Notes under the pieces: generated by a model
The model's database searches: none
Told to the model about the DNA's origin: nothing
What the model saw: the letters and a program-made list of their open reading frames with translations, nothing else
Part shown: piece after piece, positions 1 to 13,059 of the stretch
Layout of the letters: the number at the start of each line of letters is the position of its first letter
Numbering within the stretch: position 1 is the stretch's first letter
Assembly: GCA_902556355.1 (NCBI GenBank)
Contig: CACDVW010000001.1
Span: 5,164-69,163, forward strand
Reading direction: 5' to 3'
Origin: an uncultured SAR86 cluster bacterium
GTDB taxonomy: Bacteria > Pseudomonadota > Gammaproteobacteria > Magnimaribacterales > D2472
Length of the DNA: 64,000 nt
Translations under genes and position numbers: made by a program

Positions 1-782
1 TTTTCACATAATTCATTTAGCTCAGTTAAATACATTCTTGGCCATAAATAGATAATTTTTTTATCTAAAAAATAATTTTTTGAAAGATATAGCTCACCTA
101 GAGCAACATGGCCTCCCCTTCTTGATCCATCAGTAAAATCACGAGCCATTCTTGATGAATACTTTACAACATAATCTTTATCATCATAGGTAACGGTACT
201 TCTTTGTTTGCCAAATTCTTTCCATGAGCCTTTATATCTTGTTTTAAACTTTTTCATGAATTTCTCGTAGCTCGATTCGAGATAATTATTTATATATTCA
301 TGCATTTTAGACATGTCAGAGCTCATATACATCAAAATATTTTTTATCACATCTAGTTCATCAGTAACCAAATAAGGGGTCTTTAAATTTTTAGACATTT
401 TATATGTTATACCGTACAAGTCTTCTTGAATTTTATGCTTGCCCTTTTTGAGATAATACACACCGACGACTCCATTTAAAACAGCCCCATATGCATGATG
501 CAATCGTTGCATTTGAGCATTCCCGGAAGAACCTCTGTTCAACGCATCTGTTCCTTCAATGGCTAGAACTGGTATATCTTTATTTCCTTCTTTCTTTACA
601 TATACACAATCATTAGATCCATAGGACTTACCATTATGACTAAAGGTAAGCCCTCCATCTTCAAATAGTTTTTGATCGTCATTAGACCCCTCAAAGAATA
701 CCCTGGCCTCATACCCAAATGGTGCAATACCAACATGATCAATGATTTCTCTTTTGATGGTTTCGTCGCTTGATAGGGCCAT
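1..782 (-). CDS. Hypothetical protein, C-terminus cut by the window edge. Candidate nuclease or partner subunit of the adjacent R-M operon.
   Basis: My own minus-strand translation from the ATG at 782..780 stays open to position 1 (MALSSDETIKREIIDHVGIAPFGYEARVFFEGSNDD...DCVYVKKEGNKDIPVLAIEGTDALNRGSSGNAQMQRLHH...). It is absent from the track because it has no stop in the window. It lies 45 nt downstream of 828..1913. No family recognised. Confidence 0.55.
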   Translation of the reverse strand, partial: MALSSDETIKREIIDHVGIAPFGYEARVFFEGSNDDQKLFEDGGLTFSHNGKSYGSNDCVYVKKEGNKDIPVLAIEGTDALNRGSSGNAQMQRLHHAYGAVLNGVVGVYYLKKGKHKIQEDLYGITYKMSKNLKTPYLVTDELDVIKNILMYMSSDMSKMHEYINNYLESSYEKFMKKFKTRYKGSWKEFGKQRSTVTYDDKDYVVKYSSRMARDFTDGSRRGGHVALGELYLSKNYFLDKKIIYLWPRMYLTELNELCE

Positions 783-827
783 ATGTTCATTTGAGCATAT
801 GATTTTTTTCTTTGCAAAGTTTTGGAA

Positions 828-1913
828 TCAGAATTCTTTTTTTAAAACTAATTTTATTAGTTTGTTGATATCAATTTCACTAATTATATTAATAAGATCT
901 TTTTCTGATGAAACATCATTTCCAAATAAATTTTTGTTAATTTGATTGATCTCATCGAATGTAAAATTTGATAAAAGATATAACTTGCAATATCCACTAA
1001 ACCATTTTGAGAATTCAGTCTGTTTAGTTTTATTTACCACATTTTTGTATGAGGATTTTTTAAAAAACACATTATTTTCTTTGACTGAAAGTAAAGATGA
1101 GGTTTCTACCTCAGGAATTTGGTTGTTATTATGTATTTCGATTACATTTTCAAAAACCTCATAGTTGGCGTATTTTTGTATTTGTTTTTCTAAAGTTGCA
1201 GATTCTGTTTTGGCCTCTCCAATTAAAAATTCATCTTTATCAATAACTTCAGTATTATTATTTTCTTCTTGCGAAGGAAACATTCTTATCATTGATAGCT
1301 CAATTATATTAAATCCTGATGGAAGAATTGTTCTAAGGCAATTCTCATTTTGTATTTGGCTCTGCTTTATAGCCATAAAATCAGGACTTCCCGATTTATA
1401 ATCTAATGGAACTTGAGTTTCTGTAATATATCCATTTTTTGAAAAATAAAAAGAAGATATCATTTCAAGGTAGGGCTCCATCCCATAACCCTTTTTAGAT
1501 TTATCAATTTTCAAAACTAAAATATTTTCATTCTCTGATCTATTAAGGTTTTTTTTAATTATTTTTCTAAAATGATTTTCATTCTCGATTTCAACTGGAA
1601 CAAAAATTTTATTTCCTTTAAATAAATATTCTCTTTTTTTAGACAATAATATGGGTGAATATTTTGGTTTATATCCATCATATATGCCTGTGATAAATCT
1701 ATATTCCAATGCAGATGAAACAATTTTAAGAAGTCCTCTTGTAGAAAAAGGATAAATAGAATTTTCTAAATATGCGCTACCAGATAAACTGCTAACCAAA
1801 AAAGCTGTTCTGGGATCAAGTATTAACCCTTGACCTATAGGTGTGTCTGTAATTTTTACATTTAATAACTTTTGTAAAGTATATAAAACACTTTTACTTT
1901 CAAGATTAGACAT
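828..1913 (-). CDS. Hypothetical protein; candidate restriction endonuclease (possible PD...ExK motif)
   Basis: 361-aa ORF with an ATG start that overlaps the upstream methyltransferase stop by 8 nt (ATGTCTAA). It contains SGSPDFMAIK ... FLIGEAKTES, which could be a PD-(D/E)xK motif with long spacing. The context is two MTases. Confidence 0.6.
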   Translation of the reverse strand: MSNLESKSVLYTLQKLLNVKITDTPIGQGLILDPRTAFLVSSLSGSAYLENSIYPFSTRGLLKIVSSALEYRFITGIYDGYKPKYSPILLSKKREYLFKGNKIFVPVEIENENHFRKIIKKNLNRSENENILVLKIDKSKKGYGMEPYLEMISSFYFSKNGYITETQVPLDYKSGSPDFMAIKQSQIQNENCLRTILPSGFNIIELSMIRMFPSQEENNNTEVIDKDEFLIGEAKTESATLEKQIQKYANYEVFENVIEIHNNNQIPEVETSSLLSVKENNVFFKKSSYKNVVNKTKQTEFSKWFSGYCKLYLLSNFTFDEINQINKNLFGNDVSSEKDLINIISEIDINKLIKLVLKKEF

Positions 1914-3036
1914 TTCTCATAATCAAAACTCTATCGAGTTTCTCTTTTTTCTTTTGAATTGAATTAGTTCCACCATATTTCACAATTGTTGTTTTTGATG
2001 CTGGTATTTGATCATTAATAATATCAACCTTTTTAAAACCAATTTTTTCATAAAGATCAGCAATGTCTTCAGCTGTGTTTAGTGACTTGCTTGGAGAAAG
2101 ATGAACATCTCCTAAAATAAATACAAGTAAACCGTCTTTTTTTAATACTCGTTTCATTTCCCTTCCAACCAAATACATTTGATCAAGGTAGGTAGATCTT
2201 TGTTGGATTAAATTAGTAGTTAATTCCTCTTGTTGGTGATCATTTTGATCACATAACCACAACCTAAGCCTATTGGAGTGAACATAGTCTAGGGTGTGGT
2301 AATAAGGTGGGGATGAAATAACATTGTTTACTGAATTAGTTTTTAGAGATAGCTTTCTTGAGTCTTCTTGAAGAATTTTTCCTTGAACATCTAAACTAAC
2401 TTCATCCTTATACATCCTTGATGCTTTGCTAATCATTCTTGGGATTACTTCTCTATATTCTTTTTTAGGTTTTGGATTTGGAATATATGGAATTATATAT
2501 CCGGTTCTAATAGATAGATGTTGAGGTCTGTGACCATGTAAAATCCCCAAAAGACATCCGTATAAAAAATTTCTTTCATTTTTAATTAAAATCTCTTTAA
2601 GCTGTAGTATTTCTACAAGTGTTTTTTTATGGAAATATTCTTTTACCCACATAGGTACAGATTCTAAGTCTGGTATTGGTTCTTTTTTCAAATTGATTTG
2701 ATTTAAAAAATTAATTTCTTCATCAACCCCCCTTCTATCAAATTTTGATTTTGAAATTAACACAGCGTAGGGATTTAAATCATTTCCTATAAATTTACGA
2801 TTTAATTGATCTAACTCTAAGGGAATTGTTCCAATACCACAAAAAGGATCCAAAACTACCTGACCTTCAGTTGTTAATTCTTTTATTAAAAAATGAGCAA
2901 ATGCTGGTTTAATTCTTCCAACATACGATGAAATAGAATGCATCCAAATTCCCCAATTTTGTTTTGAAAATGGCTGCTCTTTCCATGGACACTTTTTAAG
3001 TCGCCTTATCCTTTTTTTTAAATCACTATCATTCAT
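1906..3036 (-). CDS. SAM-dependent DNA methyltransferase with an SPPY motif (N4-cytosine or N6-adenine type)
   Basis: AdoMet motif VLDPFCGIGT (aa 61-70) and catalytic motif SSPPYY (aa 241-246) are separated by about 170 aa (order I, insert, IV). There is an 8-nt ATGAATGA overlap with the upstream MTase. Confidence 0.85.
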   Translation of the reverse strand: MNDSDLKKRIRRLKKCPWKEQPFSKQNWGIWMHSISSYVGRIKPAFAHFLIKELTTEGQVVLDPFCGIGTIPLELDQLNRKFIGNDLNPYAVLISKSKFDRRGVDEEINFLNQINLKKEPIPDLESVPMWVKEYFHKKTLVEILQLKEILIKNERNFLYGCLLGILHGHRPQHLSIRTGYIIPYIPNPKPKKEYREVIPRMISKASRMYKDEVSLDVQGKILQEDSRKLSLKTNSVNNVISSPPYYHTLDYVHSNRLRLWLCDQNDHQQEELTTNLIQQRSTYLDQMYLVGREMKRVLKKDGLLVFILGDVHLSPSKSLNTAEDIADLYEKIGFKKVDIINDQIPASKTTIVKYGGTNSIQKKKEKLDRVLIMRNV

Positions 3037-4084
3037 CTTTTTTGAAAATCAAACAATAATGGTGAACAATGTTGGAGGTCCATCCAAAAGGATATCCAAA
3101 TGGCGCTAATCCAACTTTATCTTGACACCATATTTTTTCATCTTTTAATGAATACTTTGTTTCTAAGTTTTTAGCTAAATCCCATGCGAGTGGATAATGC
3201 TTACCTGATTTTTTTAAATTCTTTACAATAACAACCAAATATCCACCTGGTTTAATAAAACTAAATATATCTAAATATATATTTGAAAGAATTGATAAAA
3301 ATTCCTTGTAATCACTTATATTTCCAATGTCTTCTTCAAATGAAGAATAATTAATATCTAGATTTTTTGAACTTCTTATTTTAGAAAATTTACCTGTACT
3401 TCTGTTAAGAATGTCCCAATAAGGAGGTGAACTTATACAAAAATCAATTTTATCTACTTTATGTTTTTTTAATAATTTTTTGACATTTTTAGAATCTCCA
3501 TGAATCACTTTCGATTTGGTTCTAAGTTTAATTATTTGACAATACTTTTTATTTATCTCAATACCAATACCCGTTCTATTAGTTCTGTCACATGCAACTA
3601 AAGTAGACCCAATTCCAGAAAAGGGATCAAAAACTATCTCATTTTCTTTTGTAAAAAATTTAATAAAATCTTCCATCATAGATGGTGAATATGTTGCAGG
3701 ATGTTCTTCAGCATTTAACCCAGCCTTTGTTGTAATTTCTTTTTCTTCTTTTAAGTCTTTACTGAGAGCGTCAAACACAAACCAGCTTTTAGTAAATTTG
3801 GTCCAGCTTTTTCCTTCTAAGTGATTTAATTTATTTCTTAATGAGTAAGATCCTCTTTCTGGATCTAATATAATGGAATCTGCTTTTTCAATTTCACCTT
3901 TGGTATGAAAAAGAGATACATTCTTCCAGTCATCTTGATATTCTTTTGGAATAGTTTTAAAAATCTTTTTCCTTCTTATTGATCTTAATATATCCCTGGC
4001 TTGTATATGCAACTCCTCAGATGCAACTGGTACTATTTTTCTTTTATCTGAATAATAAAAATATGGTCTTTTAAGTGATTTCAC
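3029..4084 (-). CDS. SAM-dependent DNA methyltransferase with an SPPY motif (N6_N4_Mtase-like)
   Basis: Motifs HPATYSPSMMEDFIKFF...VFDPFSGIGST (aa 128-161), IGIEINKKY, then ISSPPYWD (aa 217-224), only about 60 aa after motif I. The start is GTG. Confidence 0.85.
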   Translation of the reverse strand: MKSLKRPYFYYSDKRKIVPVASEELHIQARDILRSIRRKKIFKTIPKEYQDDWKNVSLFHTKGEIEKADSIILDPERGSYSLRNKLNHLEGKSWTKFTKSWFVFDALSKDLKEEKEITTKAGLNAEEHPATYSPSMMEDFIKFFTKENEIVFDPFSGIGSTLVACDRTNRTGIGIEINKKYCQIIKLRTKSKVIHGDSKNVKKLLKKHKVDKIDFCISSPPYWDILNRSTGKFSKIRSSKNLDINYSSFEEDIGNISDYKEFLSILSNIYLDIFSFIKPGGYLVVIVKNLKKSGKHYPLAWDLAKNLETKYSLKDEKIWCQDKVGLAPFGYPFGWTSNIVHHYCLIFKKDE

Positions 4085-4127
4085 GTATCGAATTATATAT
4101 TATTTTAGTATGTTAAATATTTGTTAT

Positions 4128-4574
4128 TCATGCGTTTTTCCAATAACTTAATGTTTTTTGATTAATTTGTGTTTGATCACAAATATCGGTAATTGATGTA
4201 TAAAATTTATCTGCAGACTCGTCATCAATTAGTAGTCTCAAGCATTCAATGATTCTTGTTATCCTGAGTTGATTATGGTTATATCCTCTTTTCCAATACT
4301 TATGTCTTTTTAAGAAAGATAAAAACCAATCAGAAGATTTAATGATATTTTGTCTTACCAGATTATCATTTTTTAATATCTGGACTAATTCATCTGTATC
4401 CAAATAGTATCCATGAAATGAGGACTGGCTTTTTTTGTTTAATGGAAAAAGTATTTGAATAAAGTCATGATTAATTTCTATTTCGTTGTCTGAGTAATTC
4501 CATATGTCCTGAATCATTCTATTTTTAAAGTCTGAATCTTTACCCAATAAAAAATTATGGAAATTCATCTCCAT
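4128..4574 (-). CDS. OGFr_N-like protein (homologue of the opioid growth factor receptor conserved region)
   Basis: NHDFIQILFPL and YNHNQLRITRIIECLRLL match the two signature blocks of the OGFr N-terminal domain (human HNHTYIQWLFPL / QHNYLRITRILKSLGELG). The track start at 4577 is TTG; the ATG at 4574 is preferred. Confidence 0.75.
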   Translation of the reverse strand: MEMNFHNFLLGKDSDFKNRMIQDIWNYSDNEIEINHDFIQILFPLNKKSQSSFHGYYLDTDELVQILKNDNLVRQNIIKSSDWFLSFLKRHKYWKRGYNHNQLRITRIIECLRLLIDDESADKFYTSITDICDQTQINQKTLSYWKNA

Positions 4575-4628
4575 CAAAAAAGAGTCTCTGATTTATTTGT
4601 TTGATTTAAGAATATGATTTTAAAAAAT

Positions 4629-5021
4629 TTACTTATTCTTTCTTGAGAAGTCATTAATATCTCCATAAAATGATTCAAAAATCAAAGCTCCGTTGGTGAT
4701 TTTTATAAACTTCTTAACGTGTTCAGATGTTGGTACCCGATAACCATACGCGTATGATTTCATGGTTGATCTTTTTTCATCAAAAATTTCAGAAGACGCT
4801 CTAATACCAATATGTAAAATTAAATTTTGAAATGTATAAATATTGTTATTTTTAACTAAGTCAATTTTTTTTCTCTTATAAGAATTGATAATTTTTTTAT
4901 TTTTATTTAAAAATAGATCTAATGGATCATCGTAGGACTCTTCATTATTTTTAAATAAAATAGTTTTTGATTTTGCGTATTTCTCTATGTTTTTATAGTA
5001 ATTTAATTGATACTCATCCAT
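4629..5021 (-). CDS. Hypothetical protein (130 aa)
   Basis: The ATG start overlaps the upstream protease stop by 8 nt (ATGGATGA), which suggests translational coupling. No motif recognised. Confidence 0.6.
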   Translation of the reverse strand: MDEYQLNYYKNIEKYAKSKTILFKNNEESYDDPLDLFLNKNKKIINSYKRKKIDLVKNNNIYTFQNLILHIGIRASSEIFDEKRSTMKSYAYGYRVPTSEHVKKFIKITNGALIFESFYGDINDFSRKNK

Positions 5022-5727
5022 TTATTGTCCCTATAAAAATTTTTTCAGATTTATAATGAAATGTTAATGCGAAGTGATGAAAGATGTCTGCCCCCAAGAT
5101 TGCTTTAGTGTTTGAAGATAACATTGCTGATTCAAGTTGATCTGGCAAAACCCCAAAATTAAAAGGTATTTCAATTCCGTTAAACGTAATTGGAAGTGAG
5201 TATATTGGAACATCAAATTCACCAAAACTAGGAAAGAAGTCTTTCTTTTGATCTATTGCAATTAAATCTTTTACATATTGACTATTAATATACGAAATCT
5301 TTGCCCCAGTATCTAACCAAGATATGATTGGGTAGTCTTTGTTCACTATGACATACATTGAGGGTATGCTTCTAAAATCTGCATCGACGTATATTTCTTG
5401 ATTAATTTCATTCTCCGGAAATGAGTCCCATACAGAAAATAATTTATTCTTAAAATCAATTTGAAAAACATAATTTGCTAGAACATTGTTGCCAATTAAT
5501 GCATCAAGATGGCATCCAACAAATTCACTTAACTGTTCTATGTCTGCTCCGTGATATTTGTCCTTTGTTGCAAAAGTTCTATCAAAGATTTCGAATACAT
5601 CTTCTCCAGATATTGAAACAGGTGCCCCGGTGTCAATCAGAATTCTTCTATCTTTGTCTAATACAATGACATGATTATCAAAGATATCTATTTCATATCT
5701 TTTGCAATTATTAACATCATTATTCAT
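5014..5727 (-). CDS. Single-chain, two-lobed retropepsin-like aspartic peptidase
   Basis: Two DTGA catalytic motifs (ILIDTGAPVS aa 29-38; WLDTGAKIS aa 137-145). Each is followed about 45-70 aa later by a retropepsin-type ILG-like block (LIGNNVL aa 77-83; ILGADIF aa 210-216). Confidence 0.7.
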   Translation of the reverse strand: MNNDVNNCKRYEIDIFDNHVIVLDKDRRILIDTGAPVSISGEDVFEIFDRTFATKDKYHGADIEQLSEFVGCHLDALIGNNVLANYVFQIDFKNKLFSVWDSFPENEINQEIYVDADFRSIPSMYVIVNKDYPIISWLDTGAKISYINSQYVKDLIAIDQKKDFFPSFGEFDVPIYSLPITFNGIEIPFNFGVLPDQLESAMLSSNTKAILGADIFHHFALTFHYKSEKIFIGTING

Positions 5728-6123
5728 CTATGTCTCAAGTCCTATAATTCTTTTTTGGCACTCATGAAAATCAATCAAGTATTCGTAGGGTTTTATTGTC
5801 TCTATATTATGTTCGACTACTCTTCTAAACATAGACTCAATGTTTTTTATGGCTGATGTATGTCCATACTTAATTTTGTAATCTTCAATGGTTTCTTCGA
5901 TTACTTCTTGATGAATGATTAACATTGTCATTCCACTAACAAAAAGATCCTTTGATGAGTACCATCTAACATTGTTTCTATTTCTATCGTCTTCGATTAT
6001 TAAGTAATCTGTAAACTCTTTTGATTCTTTTATGAAGTCTTTGCATGACTCTACAAGTTCATGATCATCATTAGTTAACTCAACTTCATTAAAATTACCG
6101 AAAATACTCTGAACGTTAGACAT
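5728..6123 (-). CDS. Hypothetical protein (131 aa), first gene downstream of the SOS-box-like site
   Basis: ATG start. Its TAG stop abuts the protease ATG (TAGATG). No motif recognised. Confidence 0.6.
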   Translation of the reverse strand: MSNVQSIFGNFNEVELTNDDHELVESCKDFIKESKEFTDYLIIEDDRNRNNVRWYSSKDLFVSGMTMLIIHQEVIEETIEDYKIKYGHTSAIKNIESMFRRVVEHNIETIKPYEYLIDFHECQKRIIGLET

Positions 6124-6149
6124 CTATCAATACTATCGAAAATAATTAC

Positions 6150-6169
6150 TACTGTATATACATATAGTT
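6150..6169 (-). promoter_or_regulatory. LexA (SOS) box-like operator TACTGTATATACATATAGTT
   Basis: CTGT-N8-ATAG, the same half-sites and spacing as the box in front of the window's own lexA (36617..36636, TACTGTATAAATATATAGTA). It lies 27 nt upstream of the 5728..6123 start codon, in a 48-nt intergenic gap. Confidence 0.5.
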
Positions 6170-6171
6170 AA

Positions 6172-6375
6172 TTAATCGTACTTATTTTTTAAAGTCTTGG
6201 TTATCTCTCTCATAAAAGAAAGTTGAGAAAATAAATTTGCACTTTCATCATTTAAATCTTCCCACGTTAACCAATCAAAATTATTGGATCCAATTTTTCC
6301 AAGTTTCTTTATTTTTTTATCAATTGACTTAATTCTAAACCAAAGTCTAATATCGTTATCATTTTTGATTTCCAT
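6172..6375 (-). CDS. Hypothetical small protein (about 67 aa)
   Basis: An internal ATG (MEIKNDNDIRLWF...) sits 1 nt after the stop of the upstream ORF. The longer track start (6420) would overlap that ORF by 44 nt. Confidence 0.5.
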   Translation of the reverse strand: MEIKNDNDIRLWFRIKSIDKKIKKLGKIGSNNFDWLTWEDLNDESANLFSQLSFMREITKTLKNKYD

Positions 6376-6376
6376 A

Positions 6377-6670
6377 TTAGACCCAAGTATTAGTTGAATA
6401 CTTGATTCCCTTATCATCACAAATATCTTTTAAGTCATGAAGAGTGAATTTCTCTTCGGAATTAAATCCCATGATAAGAATCTCTATTGCGAACTTGGGT
6501 AAATAGTCTTTCTCAATAATTAGATAATACTCATACTCATCATTACCCCAGAATTCTTCAACATCTGAACCGTAGTGAAAAGAACTGAGAATAAGGTCTC
6601 CATTAACACCATATTCACCATAAACAGAATAACTGCCATGGGGAAACTCTTCTCTATAGATTTGTTCCAT
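6377..6670 (-). CDS. Hypothetical acidic small protein (about 97 aa)
   Basis: The ATG at 6670 (MEQIYREEF...) is preceded by GGAG with a 6-nt spacer. Alternative starts are the ATG at 6682 and the GTG at 6691. The protein is rich in E/D/Y. Confidence 0.55.
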   Translation of the reverse strand: MEQIYREEFPHGSYSVYGEYGVNGDLILSSFHYGSDVEEFWGNDEYEYYLIIEKDYLPKFAIEILIMGFNSEEKFTLHDLKDICDDKGIKYSTNTWV

Positions 6671-6810
6671 ATTTTTCTCCATAAAAATCACACTCGAAAT
6701 TGAGTGAAATGACGTGGGTAATGAAATTCGAAATAGAAAAAATATTTCTTTGATTACACTTATATATATGGGGTTTAGATTAGGTTTTTAAAGGTCGGTT
6801 AGATAGTTTA

Positions 6811-7245
6811 TTAAAAAGAAATTGATTCGCTGTCTTCATTAAAAAAATACTTTTCCATTTCTTTATACTTGGTTGTTGATGAGTACCATCCTTTTTCATT
6901 CCATGAAGTTGTATTTTTATATCTATCAATAAACAACTCTAAAGCTTCATCGTGATTATAGATATAAAAACCATTATCGCTTGGATAGGCCATATAAATA
7001 TTTTTATTCATATATTTTTTTTCGAATGTTAATCGACTTTTGAGTTGTATTTTGTATACATCCCCCTCGGTTGATAACGCTAATAGGTCAGCGCCATGAA
7101 CATCGTCATTTAACCATATACAGTTAAACCCATAAGTGCTGAGCAAGGATGCAAGTTTATGAAAATTATAGTTTTCTTTTTGTTTATTATTTAGAGATAC
7201 GTAAGATGCTTTTTTGAAAGTCTTATTTAAGTCTTTGTTTATCAC
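6811..7245 (-). CDS. Small PD-(D/E)xK-fold nuclease-like protein (Hjc/DUF4365-like pattern)
   Basis: The pattern is E24 ... YGFNCIWL ... GAD53LLAL ... VYKIQ67LK69S. This resembles the Hjc-type E / D / (E/Q)xK arrangement with the GF-containing helix. The start is GTG. Confidence 0.55.
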   Translation of the reverse strand: MINKDLNKTFKKASYVSLNNKQKENYNFHKLASLLSTYGFNCIWLNDDVHGADLLALSTEGDVYKIQLKSRLTFEKKYMNKNIYMAYPSDNGFYIYNHDEALELFIDRYKNTTSWNEKGWYSSTTKYKEMEKYFFNEDSESISF

Positions 7246-7305
7246 GTTTGATTTGGTTATTAATAATTTAGTTTAATTTTAATGATATTTTTTTTAAAAG
7301 TTGAT

Positions 7306-8679
7306 TTAATTAAGTTTTTTATCAATTCCTTGAATCCTGTTTAGATATTCATGAGTTTCTTGGGAATTAAGTATTATAGTTTCTCGGTCTCTTCTTAAAT
7401 AAAAAATAGGCTCTTTGTCTGGATATTTTTTAATCTTGTTAAAATGTGTATCTACACAAAAAACTCCCCCGTTTACTCTTTCAACTGAAATTTCACAAAC
7501 TCTTTTATTCTGAATTGTTTCATATACAAAAGATATTTTGTTTGAAACTTCTTTTCCCAGACAGTCCATTACATATCTGTTAATAAGACGTGTGTACTCA
7601 TCTTCATTTTCAACAAGAACTTTAGGAATTTTATTGCTGATTTTATCTTTTTCTAAACCTATGATTTCCAAGTCATCTCTAACACCAATTATTAAAGTTC
7701 CTCCTTTAGAATTCATAAACCCAGCTATTGCTTTAAGACATTCGTGTCTTATCTCTTTTAAGACATTGTTTGTTTTCTGACATTTAAAAAAAGAAGATTT
7801 TAGTTCAACAGTGGTAGTTTCGTGATTAATTATTTTTGACATAATTCTGTCTACTGATTCTGATTCAAAAAACTTTAAATAGTCTTCTACTGTTGTTGAT
7901 GCAAGGGTTAAGCTTTGTCTAGTCATTTGCTGAGTTTCATTTAAATTTATTAAACCTTTTTCATTTGGTATAGGGTCTGTTAAATCTTCTCGTAGACTCA
8001 TCATGCTGCTAACAAATTCCTCTTTTCTGATTATTTGGGTTACTAAAAAAAGGGGTATTATTATTGAAGACATTCCGAATGATTTATAGGTCGCATGAAG
8101 AGTTATAAGGCAAGCTCTCTGTTCTTCAGTTAAAGTTTTTATATCATTGATAATGCTTTTTACAATTTTTAGTTCTTGATATTTTTTAATATCAATAAAA
8201 TCAAAAGGATTTTCATCCTTGTCTAAATTTCCTCTTAAGGGGTTGTTATGATAAATTCTTGCCATTCCGTATTGAAATAGTTTATGTACTTCTTCTTCTC
8301 CATATTTGCTTATTAGCGCTTTGGTCACAGAGTTGCTTCTTCGATGTTTAATATTTTCAGAATCAGGGTCCATTAACTCGGAAACCCACAAACCATCTTC
8401 ATAAATTGCGTGTGGGTAATAATTGTGATAATCACTGTTTTCAGTTCCATGAATTTGTGTGCTAAAGATTCTATATGCACAAAATTCTTGTGTATTAATA
8501 TAACCATCTTTTAATTCTGTATTTGAACAATTTTCAAGATCAGCAATAATAAAATCCAAGAATGATTTATTTGTATGGCATATTTCAGATTTTCCACGAA
8601 AATTAAGAATGTTTTTTTGTGTTGATTCATCAATTATGAAATATTTGTTATTTTTTTTTAATATGGAGAAAAAATTCAT
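7306..8679 (-). CDS. AlbA_2 (Schlafen-like, 'divergent AAA') domain protein with an unknown N-terminal domain of about 280 aa
   Basis: The C-terminal block TVELKSSFF...EIRHECLKAIAGFMNSKGGTLIIGVRDDLEIIGLE matches the AlbA_2 signature (E.K ... ia AfaNt.GG.l.iGv.d.g.i.G). The start lies 5 nt after the stop of 8685..8966. Confidence 0.7.
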   Translation of the reverse strand: MNFFSILKKNNKYFIIDESTQKNILNFRGKSEICHTNKSFLDFIIADLENCSNTELKDGYINTQEFCAYRIFSTQIHGTENSDYHNYYPHAIYEDGLWVSELMDPDSENIKHRRSNSVTKALISKYGEEEVHKLFQYGMARIYHNNPLRGNLDKDENPFDFIDIKKYQELKIVKSIINDIKTLTEEQRACLITLHATYKSFGMSSIIIPLFLVTQIIRKEEFVSSMMSLREDLTDPIPNEKGLINLNETQQMTRQSLTLASTTVEDYLKFFESESVDRIMSKIINHETTTVELKSSFFKCQKTNNVLKEIRHECLKAIAGFMNSKGGTLIIGVRDDLEIIGLEKDKISNKIPKVLVENEDEYTRLINRYVMDCLGKEVSNKISFVYETIQNKRVCEISVERVNGGVFCVDTHFNKIKKYPDKEPIFYLRRDRETIILNSQETHEYLNRIQGIDKKLN

Positions 8680-8684
8680 AATTT

Positions 8685-8966
8685 TTAGATCTCAAAAATT
8701 AGGGACATAGATAAATATACATATACCATTAAACTTAGAAAAAAAACAACCCAAGGAACTGGCTCTATTTCTGTTTCAATAAGAGATCCGAATCCAAATT
8801 TTATTATTGTAAATAACAAAATAACGAAAAAAATTAAAGAAAAAATAAAAAATATAGCGCCTACAAAAAATAAATATCTTATATCTCCGGTCATTAAATA
8901 GACTATTGTTAATATAAGAGATGCATAAGGAACAATTAAAATTTTAATTGAATTGAATATATTCAT
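8685..8966 (-). CDS. Small integral membrane protein (3 predicted TM helices)
   Basis: 93 aa with three long hydrophobic stretches and an ATG start. It is tightly coupled to the AlbA_2 gene. Confidence 0.6.
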   Translation of the reverse strand: MNIFNSIKILIVPYASLILTIVYLMTGDIRYLFFVGAIFFIFSLIFFVILLFTIIKFGFGSLIETEIEPVPWVVFFLSLMVYVYLSMSLIFEI

Positions 8967-9008
8967 TTGTCACTTAACATAAAAATTATTAATAAATTAA
9001 TATACATA

Positions 9009-9037
9009 ATCCTAAACAATGTGTTTTATTTTGACAA
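9009..9037 (-). repeat. Copy A of a perfect 29-bp repeat (plus strand ATCCTAAACAATGTGTTTTATTTTGACAA); promoter-like on the minus strand
   Basis: Identical to 12211..12239. On the minus strand it reads TTGTCA-N17-TAGGAT. It contains the palindrome AAACA-ATG-TGTTT. Confidence 0.85.
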
Positions 9038-9040
9038 ACT

Positions 9041-9736
9041 CTAAATATAGTTAGTGTCCTGTATGTCAGATTGATAAATATCATAGCTACTCATGCACAT
9101 TCTTTCAGAATGTTTAATAGCATGTGACAGTCCTTCGATAGTAAAGCGCATATCTTTTAGAGGTGATGAATTATCAAATTTAATTTCAAAAGATTTAGCA
9201 TCTCTCATGGATAGAATGTATTTTAGTTTAAAGACGTAGTCGATATTAGAACCTTCGCCAATGATATTGCCTACCTTCAAAACAATATCTTTCGGTTTGC
9301 CCCTATCAACAGTCATAGTTGCTTTAATTTCATCATCCTCTGAATAGTTAGTGTTTCCAACTGGTGCTGTAATTGTTGGCTCAGAGGTAACACAAAAAGG
9401 TCTAGCCATTTCTAGATAAAAATTAGTATTAGTATCATTACCTGTTTTATGGAGGATAAGATTTTCATTGGAGTAAGAATCTATACCCCAGCCATCAATA
9501 GTTCTTGTCCAGTCAGCTGAGAGAAATGAAGATGAGACTGTAAGGAGGAGGATAAACTTATGATGCTTGTACATAGGGTTCCCGGAGAAAGGACCGAGAT
9601 GTACCATCTTGTCGTCTAAGATAATCTCATCTTCATATTCAAACAAATCTTTCTTGGGCTTTAACCATCTCTTAACACCAAGACCAACTGTGAAAATTAT
9701 TAAACCAAGTAAACCAAACCCAAAAACTTCTTCCAT
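9041..9736 (-). CDS. Membrane-anchored hypothetical protein (231 aa); predicted target of the island ECF sigma factor
   Basis: N-terminal TM segment (FGFGLLGLIIFTVGLGV) and an AGGAG Shine-Dalgarno 6 nt before the ATG. It is preceded by the TGTAAC-N16-CGTTAAG motif. Confidence 0.65.
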   Translation of the reverse strand: MEEVFGFGLLGLIIFTVGLGVKRWLKPKKDLFEYEDEIILDDKMVHLGPFSGNPMYKHHKFILLLTVSSSFLSADWTRTIDGWGIDSYSNENLILHKTGNDTNTNFYLEMARPFCVTSEPTITAPVGNTNYSEDDEIKATMTVDRGKPKDIVLKVGNIIGEGSNIDYVFKLKYILSMRDAKSFEIKFDNSSPLKDMRFTIEGLSHAIKHSERMCMSSYDIYQSDIQDTNYI

Positions 9737-9773
9737 ATATAACTCCTAAATAAAAAAATTGTTTCGTTATTTT

Positions 9774-9807
9774 CTTAACGTGTCAGAAATGGATTTGTTA
9801 CAAATTA
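9774..9807 (-). promoter_or_regulatory. ECF-type promoter motif TAATTTGTAACA-N13-ACGTTAAG (copy 2)
   Basis: Minus strand: ATTAATTTGTAACAAATCCATTTCTGACACGTTAAG. The AAC (-35) and CGT (-10) elements are spaced as in TGTAAC-N16-CGT ECF consensus promoters. Both conserved blocks are identical to those at 11071..11104. Confidence 0.6.
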
Positions 9808-9809
9808 AT

Positions 9810-10469
9810 TTAACAATGACAAAAGATATGACGTTTTACTTCACTGGCTGCGAAGGAAACATCGACAGTTTCAATAATAGATAAATCAACAAAGTAATCT
9901 CTATCTGCTCTTGGAGCATTGATATCATTGTTTACAAAGAAATCTTTATTAGCTTCATAGATTGCGTACATAACTTGATACTTATCTACTCCCAGATCGT
10001 TAGCTATCTGTGATGCAGTGCTCCATAGAGTTTCCATCTCAGAGCCAGATACAAATATTGGCTCGGGCTCTTCAATGACTTCTCTAATCATTGGTTCGGT
10101 CTCTTCATATGCTATCTGTACCGAAGAGACTGGTTCTACTATCTCAGAAGAGGACTTCACAATCGTAAAAGCTATAACTCCAAGACTTGCTGCAATTGCA
10201 AAACCAATTAAAGGTTTGAAATTAATTGTTGAAACATTCGAAAGCTTCTCAAGTTGCTCACTGATAAAAGCTTCTGCCTTAGCATTGAGCTCATCTCTTC
10301 TTTCCCCGCCAAAGAAGCCCTCAAGCATGGACTCTGAGACAAGCAAGCTTTCATAAAATTCTTTGGCTTCTTTTGAGGCATCAATAAGTGCTTTTAGCTC
10401 AGGAGAGTTTTCGAGCGTAGCTCCATCATCCATTAGTTCAATTATTTGTATTTGCTTTTCTTCGTTCAT
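9810..10469 (-). CDS. Anti-sigma factor-like single-pass membrane protein with a FimV/LysM-like C-terminal domain
   Basis: Its ATG overlaps the sigma-factor TGA (ATGA). It has a central TM segment (LIGFAIAASLGVIAFTIV). The C-terminal TLWSTASQIANDLGVDKYQVMYAIYEANKDFFVNNDIN resembles the FimV N-terminal motif. Confidence 0.65.
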   Translation of the reverse strand: MNEEKQIQIIELMDDGATLENSPELKALIDASKEAKEFYESLLVSESMLEGFFGGERRDELNAKAEAFISEQLEKLSNVSTINFKPLIGFAIAASLGVIAFTIVKSSSEIVEPVSSVQIAYEETEPMIREVIEEPEPIFVSGSEMETLWSTASQIANDLGVDKYQVMYAIYEANKDFFVNNDINAPRADRDYFVDLSIIETVDVSFAASEVKRHIFCHC

Positions 10470-11044
10470 AATTTTCTGTCCATACATTTAGCAAGTTTTA
10501 TTCTTGCTCTATTAGCTTTCACCCTCAAATTTGCCATACTGTTATCACTCACAACTTCTTGAATCTCTTCATAGCTATGACCAGCACCCAGCATTGATAA
10601 AATAATTTGATCTGTTTCATCAAAAGACTCTAAGCATGTGAGCATTTGCTGAAACTCAAAATTCTGTTGGTGAAATCCATCATTGGTTACTGGTATATCA
10701 TTACCTTCAATTGAGACCATTCTTTTTTGTTTGCGTAAATTATCTACATGGTTATTCTTGAGAATTTTTTTGGCGTAAGCCATGGGTTTTGCATGCTCTA
10801 AGAATTTATCTTTGTTGTTGATTAGTTTTATTATGGTGTTATGAACCAAGTCTGATGAATCTGCCTTATTCTTATAAGTTAAAAACATGGCATAAGGCAT
10901 TAGCTTTTTGCTCATATCTTCAAGTAATTCTTTAAATGTCATCTCTATTTCATTCTTACACGATTTATTATCTTCGTGTCTAAGCGCAAGAAGTTTTTCC
11001 TGCTTATTTACAGTCCTAGATTCTATGTTCACAAGTGCTTCCAT
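10466..11044 (-). CDS. ECF-family (sigma-70 group 4) RNA polymerase sigma factor
   Basis: Region 2-like DLVHNTIIKLINNKDKF...AKKILKNNHVDNLRKQKR and a region 4 HTH, DQIILSMLGAGHSYEEIQEVV...NLRVKANRARIKLAKCM. Confidence 0.8.
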   Translation of the reverse strand: MEALVNIESRTVNKQEKLLALRHEDNKSCKNEIEMTFKELLEDMSKKLMPYAMFLTYKNKADSSDLVHNTIIKLINNKDKFLEHAKPMAYAKKILKNNHVDNLRKQKRMVSIEGNDIPVTNDGFHQQNFEFQQMLTCLESFDETDQIILSMLGAGHSYEEIQEVVSDNSMANLRVKANRARIKLAKCMDRKL

Positions 11045-11070
11045 GTTTGAGTAAATATATCTATCTACTC

Positions 11071-11104
11071 CTTAACGTACCAGGATCAAAAATGTTACAA
11101 ATTA
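11071..11104 (-). promoter_or_regulatory. ECF-type promoter motif TAATTTGTAACA-N13-ACGTTAAG (copy 1, upstream of the sigma gene)
   Basis: Minus strand: AATAATTTGTAACATTTTTGATCCTGGTACGTTAAG. It ends 26 nt before the sigma ATG, and its -35 element overlaps the stop of the HTH gene. Confidence 0.6.
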
Positions 11105-11355
11105 TTTTTAATTAATTTTTTAATTGATTTTGAGACAACCATTTTTTTATAGCCAACCCTAAAAGATTCAAGCATATTATATTTAATGTATTGCCTAACC
11201 TTGTGAGGGGTGCAGCCTAAAATAATAGCTGTATCTTTAATAGTATATGAGGGTTGCATATCGTCGTAGATGGTCTTTTTATAAATACCAAGATGCTTTT
11301 CAATGTTTTCCAATTTCTCAAGAATTAAATCTAACTTATCTTCTTTTTCTTTCAT
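11095..11355 (-). CDS. Excisionase-family (HTH_17/MerR-like) DNA-binding protein
   Basis: YTIKDTAIILGCTPHKVRQYIKYNMLESFRVGYKKMVVSKSIKKLI fits the Xis-type HTH pattern (EaA.lLgvs..tv...i..g.l....G....i....l..). Confidence 0.7.
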   Translation of the reverse strand: MKEKEDKLDLILEKLENIEKHLGIYKKTIYDDMQPSYTIKDTAIILGCTPHKVRQYIKYNMLESFRVGYKKMVVSKSIKKLIKNNL

Positions 11356-11486
11356 TCCGACTTAATTATGTTTTCAAACACTTCATAGCAAACCTCAGTC
11401 TGTCCTTTTCTATCAATGACCAGAAATATTAGTGGTACTGCTAGAGCTATTATTATTCCAATATATAAATAATCTTTTTTATTCAT
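11352..11486 (-). CDS. Small TM protein (44 aa) missing from the ORF track
   Basis: Own translation: MNKKDYLYIGIIIALAVPLIFLVIDRKGQTEVCYEVFENIIKSE. Its TGA overlaps the ATG of the HTH gene (ATGA). Confidence 0.45.
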   Translation of the reverse strand: MNKKDYLYIGIIIALAVPLIFLVIDRKGQTEVCYEVFENIIKSE

Positions 11487-11499
11487 TTATTTATCACTT

Positions 11500-11886
11500 T
11501 CATTTATTAAATTCATCTATGCATCGTTGTTGATCTTCATAAATTGCATGCTTTTCCCAACAAAACTCTTCTGGTGTTTGGGTTTTGATACCGGTACATT
11601 CCAAGATATCTGGATTATCTAAAACCGATCCATCATGCCAGTCTGAACATGCATTGAGTCTACCTTCAAAAATACTTTGCATCTCAGGATGTTTGGCAGC
11701 ACATACCTCATAAACCCCAAAGGTACACTCATCTCCCTTATTTTCATCTTTACAAATTTTGAGTTCTTTCTCCCAACAGCTTGAGAGAACTCTTGAAGCT
11801 CTGATTTCATCATCTGAGGGAAACATATAAACAAAAACCACAAGCCCAACCAAAATAACTCCCATCACTATCATTAATTTACTCAT
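11500..11886 (-). CDS. Cys-rich exported or membrane-anchored hypothetical protein
   Basis: An N-terminal hydrophobic anchor (LMIVMGVILVGLVVFVYMF) is followed by a soluble part containing 8 Cys. Confidence 0.6.
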   Translation of the reverse strand: MSKLMIVMGVILVGLVVFVYMFPSDDEIRASRVLSSCWEKELKICKDENKGDECTFGVYEVCAAKHPEMQSIFEGRLNACSDWHDGSVLDNPDILECTGIKTQTPEEFCWEKHAIYEDQQRCIDEFNK

Positions 11887-11892
11887 CTCTTA

Positions 11893-12204
11893 TCATTCCT
11901 TTGATGATCCATATTCAATCTCATATTCACTTATATAATCTTCTATGTCAGGTATTAAATCATTAAGTCGATTTACTCTTTTTTGGTAGTAATCTAATAC
12001 CTCTTTAATATCTTTTTTAATTTGCGCATGCTTTATTTCGGTAATGTAGCCCTCACTGAAGAATCTAGAGAACTCATCTGCATGACTTTGCATCCTAATG
12101 AGCATGTCATGAGCATCTTCAAGTTCTTTATTTTTAACTTGTAACTGCTCTTTCATTTTGAAATAAAATGCTTGGAGGTCATTAATTGCAATTACATCGG
12201 ACAC
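11893..12204 (-). CDS. Hypothetical coiled-coil-like protein (103 aa)
   Basis: GTG start 6 nt downstream of copy B of the 29-bp repeat. The sequence is charged and heptad-like. Confidence 0.5.
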   Translation of the reverse strand: MSDVIAINDLQAFYFKMKEQLQVKNKELEDAHDMLIRMQSHADEFSRFFSEGYITEIKHAQIKKDIKEVLDYYQKRVNRLNDLIPDIEDYISEYEIEYGSSKE

Positions 12205-12210
12205 TACTCC

Positions 12211-12239
12211 ATCCTAAACAATGTGTTTTATTTTGACAA
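12211..12239 (-). repeat. Copy B of the perfect 29-bp repeat; promoter-like on the minus strand
   Basis: Identical to 9009..9037. It lies between the stop of 12254..12553 and the start of 11893..12204. Confidence 0.85.
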
Positions 12240-12253
12240 TTCTTATCTAAGAA

Positions 12254-12553
12254 TTAGGCAGTTATTTTTCTATTTTTGAGCAAATATTTTTTTAGCACTA
12301 TTGGGTCGCCACCATTTTCTATTTGATACTCCTCTGATGTTTTCAATTTTCCTCCCTCACACCACGCAAAAACTCCCTCAGAGTATTTACTTGGATTCTT
12401 TGTTGATTCTGTGCCATCAATAATTATGTAGTTATATCCATCTTCAAAAATTGAAGGTTTAAATAGTTTGTATATAAGTTTTATCCATTGAAATATAGTT
12501 ATAACGACTATAACTAACCAAGCTGTAAAAATTATAAGAACAATGCTTGTCAT
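12254..12553 (-). CDS. N-terminally membrane-anchored hypothetical protein (99 aa)
   Basis: ATG start and TM segment IVLIIFTAWLVIVVITIF. Confidence 0.55.
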   Translation of the reverse strand: MTSIVLIIFTAWLVIVVITIFQWIKLIYKLFKPSIFEDGYNYIIIDGTESTKNPSKYSEGVFAWCEGGKLKTSEEYQIENGGDPIVLKKYLLKNRKITA

Positions 12554-12589
12554 TAACTACATGCTAAATAATGAATTATATTTAATCAA

Positions 12590-12787
12590 TTAATCATTAA
12601 TAAAATAAGTCCCCCATTCTTCATATACGTATTTCCAATGCTCTTGTTCACAAATGGGACAGTGATAATGCCAACTCATTGGAAATGATTTGGTTTTTGG
12701 GTAATTAAGACTATTCATAAAACCAGTAACATTTACTATGCAAGGTATATATTCGCAGTTGTGAAGTTCACAAATTTGTTTATTCAT
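12590..12787 (-). CDS. Small Cys-rich (zinc-ribbon-like) protein (65 aa)
   Basis: CELHNCEYIPC ... HYHCPICEQEH. An AGGAG Shine-Dalgarno sits 6 nt before the ATG. Confidence 0.55.
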   Translation of the reverse strand: MNKQICELHNCEYIPCIVNVTGFMNSLNYPKTKSFPMSWHYHCPICEQEHWKYVYEEWGTYFIND

Positions 12788-12945
12788 TTTTAACTCCTAT
12801 GTTTGTTAGTTAACCGCATCTTTTTTCCACCTTGCCGGAGTTGGCAGGTTGGAGAGGAACTTAATCCTGCTCGTAATGCATATCAATATTATAACAAATG
12901 AATTGGCACAGGTATTGCAATACAAAGGGTATTTAGGAGGTATTT

Positions 12946-13056
12946 ATGACAGATTACTGGCTAAGAGTATTTGAATTTTGTAAAGAGGAGCCTGGTTGGG
13001 CTATTGCATTTTTCTTTTGTGGTTTTGTTATAGGTGAAACTTACTTCATTCTATAA
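12946..13056 (+). CDS. Small hydrophobic ORF (36 aa) missing from the ORF track
   Basis: AGGAGG lies 5 nt upstream of the ATG. Sequence: MTDYWLRVFEFCKEEPGWAIAFFFCGFVIGETYFIL. It ends 3 nt from the convergent DUF2237 gene. Confidence 0.4.
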   Translation: MTDYWLRVFEFCKEEPGWAIAFFFCGFVIGETYFIL

Positions 13057-13059
13057 ATA

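Follow-up and report, generated by a model that had tools for sequence, protein, structure and literature searches.

The window analyzed here, 64,000 nucleotides from an uncultured SAR86 cluster bacterium (GenBank assembly GCA_902556355.1, contig CACDVW010000001.1), opens inside an island of 16,802 bp, and window positions 1-12897 are the right three quarters of that island. We consider it probable that the island is a strain-specific mosaic without mobility genes of its own, located at a umuDC-DUF2237 hot spot of a streamlined marine bacterium. Three parts make up the mosaic: (a) a low-GC left and middle part with a candidate restriction-modification (R-M) system, a RecB-like nuclease/SF1 helicase, a Schlafen/AlbA_2 protein and about ten genes of unknown function; (b) a module of normal GC content, common to other genomes of the genus, that encodes an extracytoplasmic function (ECF) sigma factor, a membrane protein and a 231-aa protein; and (c) a predicted S-adenosylmethionine (SAM) riboswitch of the SAM-I/IV type at the head. 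The studied genome, G000, comprises 1.07 Mb in 47 contigs, is 75% complete and has a GC content of about 33%. Sequences were compared among 25 genomes of the genus (G000 included) and 151 of the order, and 40 relatives were used in the DNA search with the island. Labels such as G001, G003 and G012 denote related genomes in the same order, and C numbers their contigs. C1 is CACDVW010000001.1, and the window is G000:C1:5164-69163, so that window position 1 is C1:5164.

The island occupies C1:1259-18060, or window positions -3905 to 12897. Contig C1 runs 5,163 bp further left than the window, and this stretch holds the last 83 codons of a 343-aa gene, a 1104-aa gene, an 86-aa open reading frame (ORF) on the opposite strand and, at the start of the contig, a Y-family polymerase gene whose IMS, IMS_C and DUF4113 domains, identified with hidden Markov models (HMMs), mark it as umuC-like. 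In junction alignments the island begins directly after the umuC stop codon, and it stops just before a conserved sequence that precedes a 36-codon ORF, itself ahead of the DUF2237 gene. The DNA right of 13060, where HMMs identify DUF2237 and DCC1-like genes, is present in all 41 related genomes searched and is 91-98% identical in the eight closest; umuC was found in 19 of the 24 other genus genomes.

Using the empty site of G017 as query against all 25 genus genomes, we found umuC and the right flank to be contiguous in seven (G017 itself, G023, G016, G009, G008, G007 and G011). These empty sites have 2-5 bp between the flanks; in G016, G017 and G023 the matched pieces are 2 bp apart. Four genomes carry inserts at the same point on one contig, of 399 bp (G021), 5.5 kb (G012), 8.5 kb (G001) and 16,802 bp (G000). 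In the remaining genus genomes the locus is split between contigs or rearranged, and the assemblies of G019 and G020 break at it. All four inserts share an identical junction, starting after the umuC stop codon and ending before the same conserved sequence, and the flanks of the site are 91-98% identical between genomes. Most of the window from 1 to 12897 has no DNA match in the 40 relatives. The exceptions are the ECF module (8981-11130; 74-83% identity in G012, G001, G017 and G003), the genes for proteins of 131, 82 and 104 aa (5724-6776; in G023, G018, G008 and G017), the OGFr_N gene (one match, in G001) and short repeats. The insert of G012 contains no recognized defense gene.

The composition of the island deviates moderately from that of the genome. 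Its GC content is 0.301, compared with 0.331 (standard deviation, sd, 0.014) for the genome, a value as low being found in 4 of 145 genome segments of equal size, and its tetranucleotide distance from the genome mean is 0.146 versus 0.097 (sd 0.027), as high in 9 of the 145. The middle part (C1:5946-14200) has a GC content of 0.28 and the right part one of 0.333, i.e., there is no deviation in the right third. In a metagenome screen, 20 public runs from nine studies were found to contain about half the words of a query stretch composed in equal parts of island and flank, and contigs of four runs from four studies were placed on C1:1-20000. Summed contig depth, a rough measure in which contig means rather than read counts are added up over relatives at a likeness of at least 90%, is 109-4483 in the flank bins versus 0-204 in 19 bins over C1:1335-14007, and is intermediate over the ECF module. 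Contigs ending at C1:1258 run on into empty-site sequence in two of the four runs (X1 and X4) and into other DNA in a third. The metagenome depths agree with the genome comparison in that the island is under-represented relative to its flanks.

An earlier note on the window, made from the sequence letters, had proposed a partial accessory island, perhaps mobile and of the defense type, with its left end outside the window and conserved gene families from 13060 onward. The extent, variability and composition of the region bear out an accessory island: extension to the left reached the umuC stop codon as the border, and neither an integrase nor a tRNA or direct repeat was seen in the added 5,163 bp; relatives have empty sites or other cargo at the same point; the flanks are far deeper in metagenomes than the island; and GC content and tetranucleotides deviate moderately from the genome. 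The 22 consecutive minus-strand ORFs that had been counted up to 12787 correspond to 21 non-nested ORFs of at least 60 aa and one of 44 aa (11355-11500) between 3 and 12787. Many of these had been described as joined by ATGA or 8-nt overlaps. Three 8-nt overlaps are present (1906/1913, 3029/3036 and 5014/5021), as are longer ones of 22 nt (10466-10487) and 44 nt (6377-6420) and an abutting pair (5727/5728), but no 4-nt ATGA overlap was seen by coordinates among the island ORFs of the window.

Gene content of the island

Judged by its genes and their predicted folds, the island is a candidate to encode a complete, split type IIS R-M system like those of BtsI and BsrDI. This four-gene layout is suggested by two nuclease proteins, of 343 and 361 aa, together with two overlapping genes for amino-methyltransferases (Table 1). 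The 361-aa gene shares an 8-nt overlap with the upstream methyltransferase gene, as do the two methyltransferase genes with each other. BsmI is the fused form of this enzyme type; its relatives BtsI and BsrDI have two subunits, and two amino-methyltransferases accompany them (Xu et al. 2007, PMC1950550). In the excerpts of that paper, the large subunit of BtsI and BsrDI is described as having an N-terminal D-Xn-E-X12-QR site and a recognition region (in BtsI, the B subunit is encoded by a 987-bp ORF and has catalytic residues D58, E72 and Q85/R86), and the small subunit as having a canonical PD-Xn-ExK site (PMC1950550).

The 343-aa protein has 83 representative homologs and belongs to no Pfam family. 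Residues D58, E76, Q90 and R93 are invariant or nearly so among 32 homologs, and the sequence itself reads D58-X17-E76-X15-Q92-R93. Its AlphaFold 2 (AF2) model, with a predicted local distance difference test score (pLDDT) of 95.3, matches BsmI (structures 9ez5, 9ezd, 9f38 and 9ez7) both in Foldseek (E 7e-6 to 1.5e-5, probability 1.00) and in VIA searches (Z 10.0-10.4, root-mean-square deviation 3.7 Å, 260-268 residues aligned), with residues 6-343 superposing on BsmI 9-445 in the latter. A profile of the family found nothing below E 0.1 among PDB sequences, and no relative turned up in a scan of genome contigs or by tblastn against plasmids.

The 361-aa protein has only 9 homolog clusters. 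In VIA searches its residues 142-292 form a restriction-endonuclease-like fold, matching 3dnx (Z 9.1) and Hjc (Z 5-5.6) and aligning also with EndoMS, PaqCI, BamHI and others (Hjc and these at Z 4-5.6), and by sequence reading the motif is P177-D178 ... E232-A-K234. Foldseek of the model against the PDB gave nothing at E ≤0.001, the nuclease fold being seen in the VIA searches only, and no BsmI C-terminal domain is among the listed fold matches. A predicted complex of the 343-aa and 361-aa proteins scored 0.00 against a mark of 0.32 and, having been run without controls, is uninformative on binding either way.

The likeness to BtsI and BsrDI lies in the set of four genes (two amino-methyltransferases, a large subunit and a candidate PD...ExK second subunit) and in the build of the large subunit (about 330 aa in those enzymes), where a recognition region comes after an N-terminal D...E...QR site, as given in the excerpted text (PMC1950550). 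Unlike in those systems, the second subunit has 361 aa rather than 165-220 aa, with extra N- and C-terminal parts, the gene order is different, and the spacing is E-X15-QR where X12 is published (PMC1950550). In such a system, protection of both strands of an asymmetric site would fall to the two amino-methyltransferases, the 343-aa BsmI-like subunit would recognize the site and cut one strand, and the 361-aa PD-(D/E)xK subunit would cut the other.

Left of the window, the 1104-aa protein combines a TM0106 RecB-like nuclease (TIGR03491, 198 bits versus a cut-off of 97) and an RNase_H_2 domain with an SF1 helicase containing AAA_11/AAA_12 domains. Its plasmid relatives comprise 266 records, 60 of them at a coverage of at least 80%, annotated as TM0106 RecB-like nuclease, and one lies just behind a brxL gene of BREX. 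No relative was found in a scan of genome contigs. Homologs with 50% identity are present in islands of G034 and G031, two genomes from a different family of the order; these islands also contain a WYL/WCX regulator, a tRNA-like sequence, C5 methyltransferases and an AlbA_2 homolog of the 457-aa protein of the present island (444 aa long in the G034 island). The AlbA_2 domain of the 457-aa protein aligns with the core of SLFN12 and SLFN14 (E 6e-4 to 0.02), and a scan of viral contigs with this protein found no relative. Assignment of the 1104-aa protein to the Mokosh system was rejected: the MkoA model matches residues 807-1083 only, and the island has no MkoB or PLD match.

Among the small genes, those for the 131-, 82- and 104-aa proteins have homologs at other loci of G023, G018, G008 and G017. 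Most of the families named in the earlier note hold up in the HMM and fold searches, namely the two DNA methyltransferases (both N6_N4), the OGFr_N homolog, the AlbA_2/Schlafen-like protein (SLFN_AlbA_2) and the PD-(D/E)xK protein, which is the 361-aa ORF at 828-1913. Two do not. The supposed retropepsin-like protease is a 237-aa ORF (5014-5727, minus strand) with two DTGA motifs about 117 residues apart, seen by eye; it has no Pfam match at E ≤0.01, and only weak PADLOC PDC-M08B matches (E 0.0026). The supposed excisionase-type helix-turn-helix (HTH) gene is an 86-aa ORF with an HTH_17 match (E 0.0038) of 17.9 bits, under the cut-off of 27. The ECF sigma/anti-sigma pair stands in its first half, through Sigma70_r2 and TIGR02937; for the membrane protein at 9810-10487 there was no HMM match to an anti-sigma family, and it is a putative anti-sigma factor by its position and membrane segment.

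The ECF module (9041-11044) has a genome-like GC content of 33%, and its proteins are 61-90% identical in G012, G001, G017 and G003; in G017 it is found at a different locus with the sigma gene broken. It is a genus-wide flexible module, not a defense system, and makes up the right third of the island. Two exact copies of a 29-nt repeat with promoter-like TTGTCA and TAGGAT boxes lie in the gene array. In G001 and G012, the first island gene is preceded by a copy that borders directly on the right flank. The repeat was considered as a private promoter of the island sigma factor and rejected: G000 itself has near-copies at C2:51907-51935 and C11:24205-24233, and among the many genus genomes with copies are G020, G021, G008 and G023, in which a DNA search did not find the sigma module. 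By its sequence and distribution the repeat is a genus-wide promoter-like element, which probably splits the gene array into at least three transcription units. Promoter-like sites number 43 versus 73 (sd 8.2) in shuffled sequences, i.e., fewer, and terminator-like sites 5 versus 4.2, which is chance level.

Table 1 Positions of island features and adjoining elements in the window.
Feature	Position	Strand	Basis or remark
Predicted BsmI/BtsI-B-like restriction endonuclease large subunit, N-terminal 260 of 343 codons	1-782	-	whole gene C1:4914-5945
361-aa PD-(D/E)xK nuclease, candidate second (canonical-site) subunit	828-1913	-	fold and motif
DNA amino-methyltransferase, 376 aa	1906-3036	-	PF01555 E 1.9e-18; PADLOC MTase_II 1.1e-22
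DNA amino-methyltransferase, 351 aa	3029-4084	-	PF01555 E 3.9e-24; PADLOC MTase_II 5.9e-34
OGFr_N-domain protein, 149 aa	4128-4577	-	PF04664 E 1.1e-8, 35.3 bits versus cut-off 22
Six small family-less genes (130, 237, 131, 82, 104 and 144 aa)	4629-7245	-	no family in Pfam, PHROGs, PADLOC or NCBIfam
457-aa protein, C-terminal Schlafen/AlbA_2 domain	7306-8679	-	PF04326 E 3.1e-12, residues 287-433
93-aa hydrophobic protein	8685-8966	-	no family
29-nt exact repeat, copy 1	9008-9036	-	promoter-like TTGTCA, 17 nt, TAGGAT
231-aa protein of ECF module	9041-9736	-	module partner
Membrane protein with FimV-like motif (below cut-off), putative anti-sigma factor	9810-10487	-	22-nt overlap with sigma gene; hydrophobic segment
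ECF sigma factor	10466-11044	-	Sigma70_r2 E 1.5e-6; TIGR02937 45.1 bits versus cut-off 42.9
Four small genes (86 aa with weak HTH_17, 44, 128 and 103 aa)	11095-12204	-	ORF list, HMM
29-nt exact repeat, copy 2	12210-12238	-	promoter-like TTGTCA, 17 nt, TAGGAT
99-aa membrane protein	12254-12553	-	77% homolog in G012
65-aa Cys-rich protein, directly behind riboswitch	12590-12787	-	9 unnamed homolog clusters
Predicted SAM-I/IV riboswitch aptamer	12789-12884	-	RF01725 77.4 bits versus gathering score 41.1, positions 1-99 of 99
Right junction of island	12885-12897		homology to empty sites of relatives from 12898 on
Conserved 36-codon ORF	12946-13056	+	strong ribosome-binding site; first element of core right flank, outside island

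SAM-I/IV riboswitch cassette

A complete SAM-I/IV riboswitch structure, by sequence and covariation, stands at the head of the island; it was absent from the earlier note's list. The SAM riboswitch cassette is the sole element that goes beyond what would be expected for an island of this kind. The riboswitch ends 1 nt before the ATG of the ORF for the 65-aa Cys-rich protein, at the head of the gene array. In an alignment of 27 riboswitch copies, 88.5% of cells pair, compared with 79.0% (sd 0.8) in shuffles, none of 500 of which reaches this value; both sides have changed in 20 of 29 pairs, and all six pseudoknot pairs covary. As in the RF01725 family, the match is full-length, and P1-P4 and the pseudoknot are conserved and covarying (Weinberg et al. 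2010, PMC2864571); the excerpts of that paper describe the family as typically metagenomic and marine. The GGAG ribosome-binding site of the 65-aa ORF doubles as the 3' strand of the pseudoknot, as it does in the island-type copies, from which we predict that SAM binding blocks translation. Plentiful SAM would then shut off synthesis of the Cys-rich protein by way of pairing with its ribosome-binding site.

The riboswitch is present in 5 of the 25 genus genomes, as a single copy in each, and in 22 of the 151 genomes of the order. Behind its lower-scoring copies lie methionine and SAM genes (resembling, by sequence, SAM synthetase, O-acetylhomoserine sulfhydrylase and homocysteine methyltransferase) and also OmpW. 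Fifteen high-scoring copies, the present one and those at 14 other loci of the order, lie in variable regions ahead of tiny ORFs of 41-138 aa, which are of at least five unrelated family-less kinds; none of the tiny ORFs behind the riboswitches has a Pfam match. This setting is unlike the usual RF01725 context of methionine or SAM genes, and in a literature search we found no paper on SAM-I/IV riboswitches ahead of such tiny ORFs and none linking a SAM riboswitch to restriction-modification.

Several of the tiny-ORF loci hold R-M or defense genes. One strand of G003 carries, in this order, the riboswitch, small ORFs, a C5 methyltransferase and a MutH/Sau3AI-like endonuclease, and G018 has the same order, but with a fragmented methyltransferase and an endonuclease of the NgoBV type. 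A C5 methyltransferase lies just upstream of the riboswitch in G001, a C5 methyltransferase and an HNH enzyme abut it in G162, and an SRA-HNH enzyme and a Nmad3 gene are downstream of it in G132. In G137 (L079, G137:C24, 695-5818), homologs of MzaB, MzaC and MzaD are found upstream, at the contig end (PADLOC E 1e-13 to 3e-105; Pfam HATPase_c_3, Z1 and DUF4420). By reading, R-M or defense genes occur within about 8 kb at 7 of the 15 tiny-ORF loci and at none of the other 8, and PADLOC R-M models matched none of the 10 methionine-gene loci; the riboswitch loci being few and related to one another, 7 of 15 versus 0 of 10 is a lead and not a result. The scan of tiny-ORF loci covered all but 7 of 89 ORFs (L074 copies of L070 genes), and the control scan of methionine loci all but 14 of 116 (locus L090, near-identical to L089).

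Other neighbors of the cassette were seen in passing. At L077 (G116:C5, 1000-1482), another OGFr_N gene (E 4.3e-8) lies beside it, and in two genomes of other genera, at L073 (G071:C1) and L076 (G132:C1), it is found in a variable stretch directly downstream of glmS-like (SIS/GATase) and glmU-like genes. The stretch downstream of glmS is the classic landing site of Tn7-type elements.

One conceivable interpretation, which we regard as speculative and unlikely, is that riboswitch and tiny ORF form a portable SAM-sensing cassette of the flexible gene pool that ties the SAM level to restriction or defense. When SAM falls, the switch would open and the small protein would be made. The drop might come about through sulfur starvation, in a bacterium dependent on reduced sulfur, or through a SAM-degrading enzyme of a phage. 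The small protein might then restrain restriction enzymes whose partner methyltransferases are starved of their cofactor, or turn on a back-up defense.

Origin of the island and its relation to known hot spots

None of the ORFs of at least 60 aa in C1:1-18060 is an integrase, recombinase or transposase by Pfam, NCBIfam or PHROGs, ARAGORN reported 0 tRNA or tmRNA genes in the window and in the 5.2 kb left of it, and neither a direct repeat or target duplication at the two junctions nor a long flanking repeat was found. HMM, ARAGORN and repeat searches agree here with the earlier note, which had seen no integrase, transposase, tRNA or flanking repeat; its suggestion of a mobile island found no backing, as there was no sign of a self-mobile element. 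We conclude that this is not a self-mobile element but a hot-spot island without mobility genes. Homologous recombination in the conserved flanks is the most likely route by which the variants, the empty state included, pass between related cells, and modules may also be shuffled among several such hot spots.

We weighed three other explanations. The region could be ancestral, the "empty" sites being deletions and the pattern a product of differential loss in a streamlining genome and not of gain. The ECF module would suit this explanation, having the genome's own GC content and recurring in four other genus genomes with 61-90% protein identity, in three of which it lies within or near the umuC locus or another variable locus. 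These identities, however, are far under the 94-100% of the flanking proteins, a given module is found at one locus or another depending on the genome, and the middle part, with a GC content of 28%, has no DNA match in 40 relatives; we regard ancestral origin as unlikely. Somewhat more doubtful still is that the block represents a present or former self-mobile integrative element (an integrative and conjugative or mobilizable element, a phage satellite or a tycheposon-like element) whose recombinase has been lost or lies beyond the contig. The left border is visible, directly at the umuC stop codon, the ORFs gave no match to a recombinase, transposase or relaxase family, there is no tRNA, and four different cargos share an identical junction that lacks a direct repeat, with PHROGs matches limited to the methyltransferases, the sigma factor and a helicase fragment. 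These observations stand against the low GC content, the co-directional and tightly packed genes, the presence of R-M genes with a weak Xis-like HTH, and the similar modules that adjoin tRNA-like sequences at another hot spot of the genus (G018 and G014), all of which a mobile element could account for. An assembly or binning chimera that joined DNA of another organism to the contig appears highly improbable. Although G000 is incomplete and in 47 contigs, and the island is close to a contig end and shallow in metagenomes, it shares its contig with both flanks, related cargo (the sigma module and the 99-aa gene) is found in G001 and G012 at precisely this junction, and pieces of the island occur in metagenome contigs of four studies.

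Several points weigh against our reading of the region as a hot-spot island with defense cargo. (i) The left flank on C1 amounts to only 1,258 bp before the contig ends, G000 is only 75% complete, and the metagenome depths are rough. (ii) The case for homologous recombination as the route consists only in the shared junction and the lack of other signs. (iii) PADLOC reported the methyltransferases and the partial MkoA helicase match on the island and nothing else. Only four genes constitute a recognizable defense system, with two more associated with defense by context, while about half of the roughly 25 island genes belong to no family, and the ECF module and several small genes are not defense genes. 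(iv) For the 361-aa nuclease, the AF2 model is middling (best pLDDT 74.6 with a predicted template modeling score, pTM, of 0.80; the other four of five models 47-58), the best fold match, 3dnx, has no known function, and the spacing of 53 residues between PD and ExK is unusually long. The label "defense-type" in the earlier note fits the R-M system, the nuclease-helicase and the Schlafen-like protein, and it does not extend to the ECF module or to the half of the genes without function.

A few further features of these loci deserve mention. The 36-codon ORF in the right flank (12946-13056, plus strand) encodes a hydrophobic product with two Cys, its DNA is 90-96% identical in relatives, and it is probably an unannotated small membrane protein. 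At the umuC hot spot of G001 (L027, G001:C2, 3858-8734) there is a cluster of genes for an M48/M78 peptidase, a TerB-domain protein, an Hsp70-like protein and an uncharacterized 363-aa protein, which could be an undescribed defense or stress system. In G012 (L026, G012:C3, 1478-3250), the DCC1-like and DUF2237 genes are separated by an extra insert of about 1.9 kb with ORFs of 294, 144 and 90 aa, and this second variable point is 0.4 kb from the main one. G003 holds two umuC copies (G003:C4:15689-17976 and G003:C6:6347-9109), 81-83% identical to the query; after one comes the riboswitch-led C5 methyltransferase/MutH-like R-M operon, after the other an insert of 8.4 kb. The genus has a second hot spot, flanked by a prolyl-oligopeptidase-like gene cluster and a MatE gene, as seen in L029 (G018:C1:388000-407999, at about 6400-11000), L040 (G014:C76) and L028 (G017:C5). 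It contains two tRNA-like sequences, visible as translated "GGLEPPT" ORFs, and its cargo includes a riboswitch cassette, a decayed C5 methyltransferase, an NgoBV-type endonuclease and a 104-aa gene, and in G017 the ECF module with the broken sigma gene.

By analogy, the closest counterparts of the island would be the core defense hotspots of Pseudomonas and the hypervariable regions of abundant marine bacteria. Like cDHS1 and cDHS2 of Pseudomonas aeruginosa (Johnson et al. 2023, PMC10250203), as described in the excerpts of that paper, the site has constant core genes on both sides, varies in size and content, and has a GC content under that of the genome, mostly unknown genes and no single mobile-element family. 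Unlike at those hotspots, only four occupied variants were seen, only one of which (that of this window) has a recognized defense system, the empty state is common, and the host is an uncultured marine bacterium of about 1.1-1.3 Mb. Low metagenomic coverage between well-covered core flanks and assemblies that break are shared with the hypervariable region inferred for SAR86A (Dupont et al. 2012, PMC3358033); that region was not assembled according to the excerpts of the paper, whereas both borders and the content are resolved here. Variable cargo in streamlined ocean bacteria is also a trait of tycheposons (Hackl et al., preprint 10.1101/2020.12.28.424599), to which the excerpted preprint text ascribes recombinases and tRNA-type sites, neither of which was found here.

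The island provides a fully delimited case of a changeable set of defense genes maintained, without mobile-element machinery, by a very small bacterium that is abundant in the ocean, at a umuDC-DUF2237 point that accepts different cargo in different strains. BsmI/BtsI-type enzymes are of practical use as strand-specific nickases, and the candidate R-M system would add to this nicking-enzyme family a split relative with two subunits, from an uncultured host. The riboswitch loci indicate that the flexible gene pool includes a SAM riboswitch class known mostly from metagenomes, which there precedes tiny proteins without family. Its frequent position beside DNA methyltransferases, which consume SAM, makes cofactor-sensing control of restriction a testable idea.

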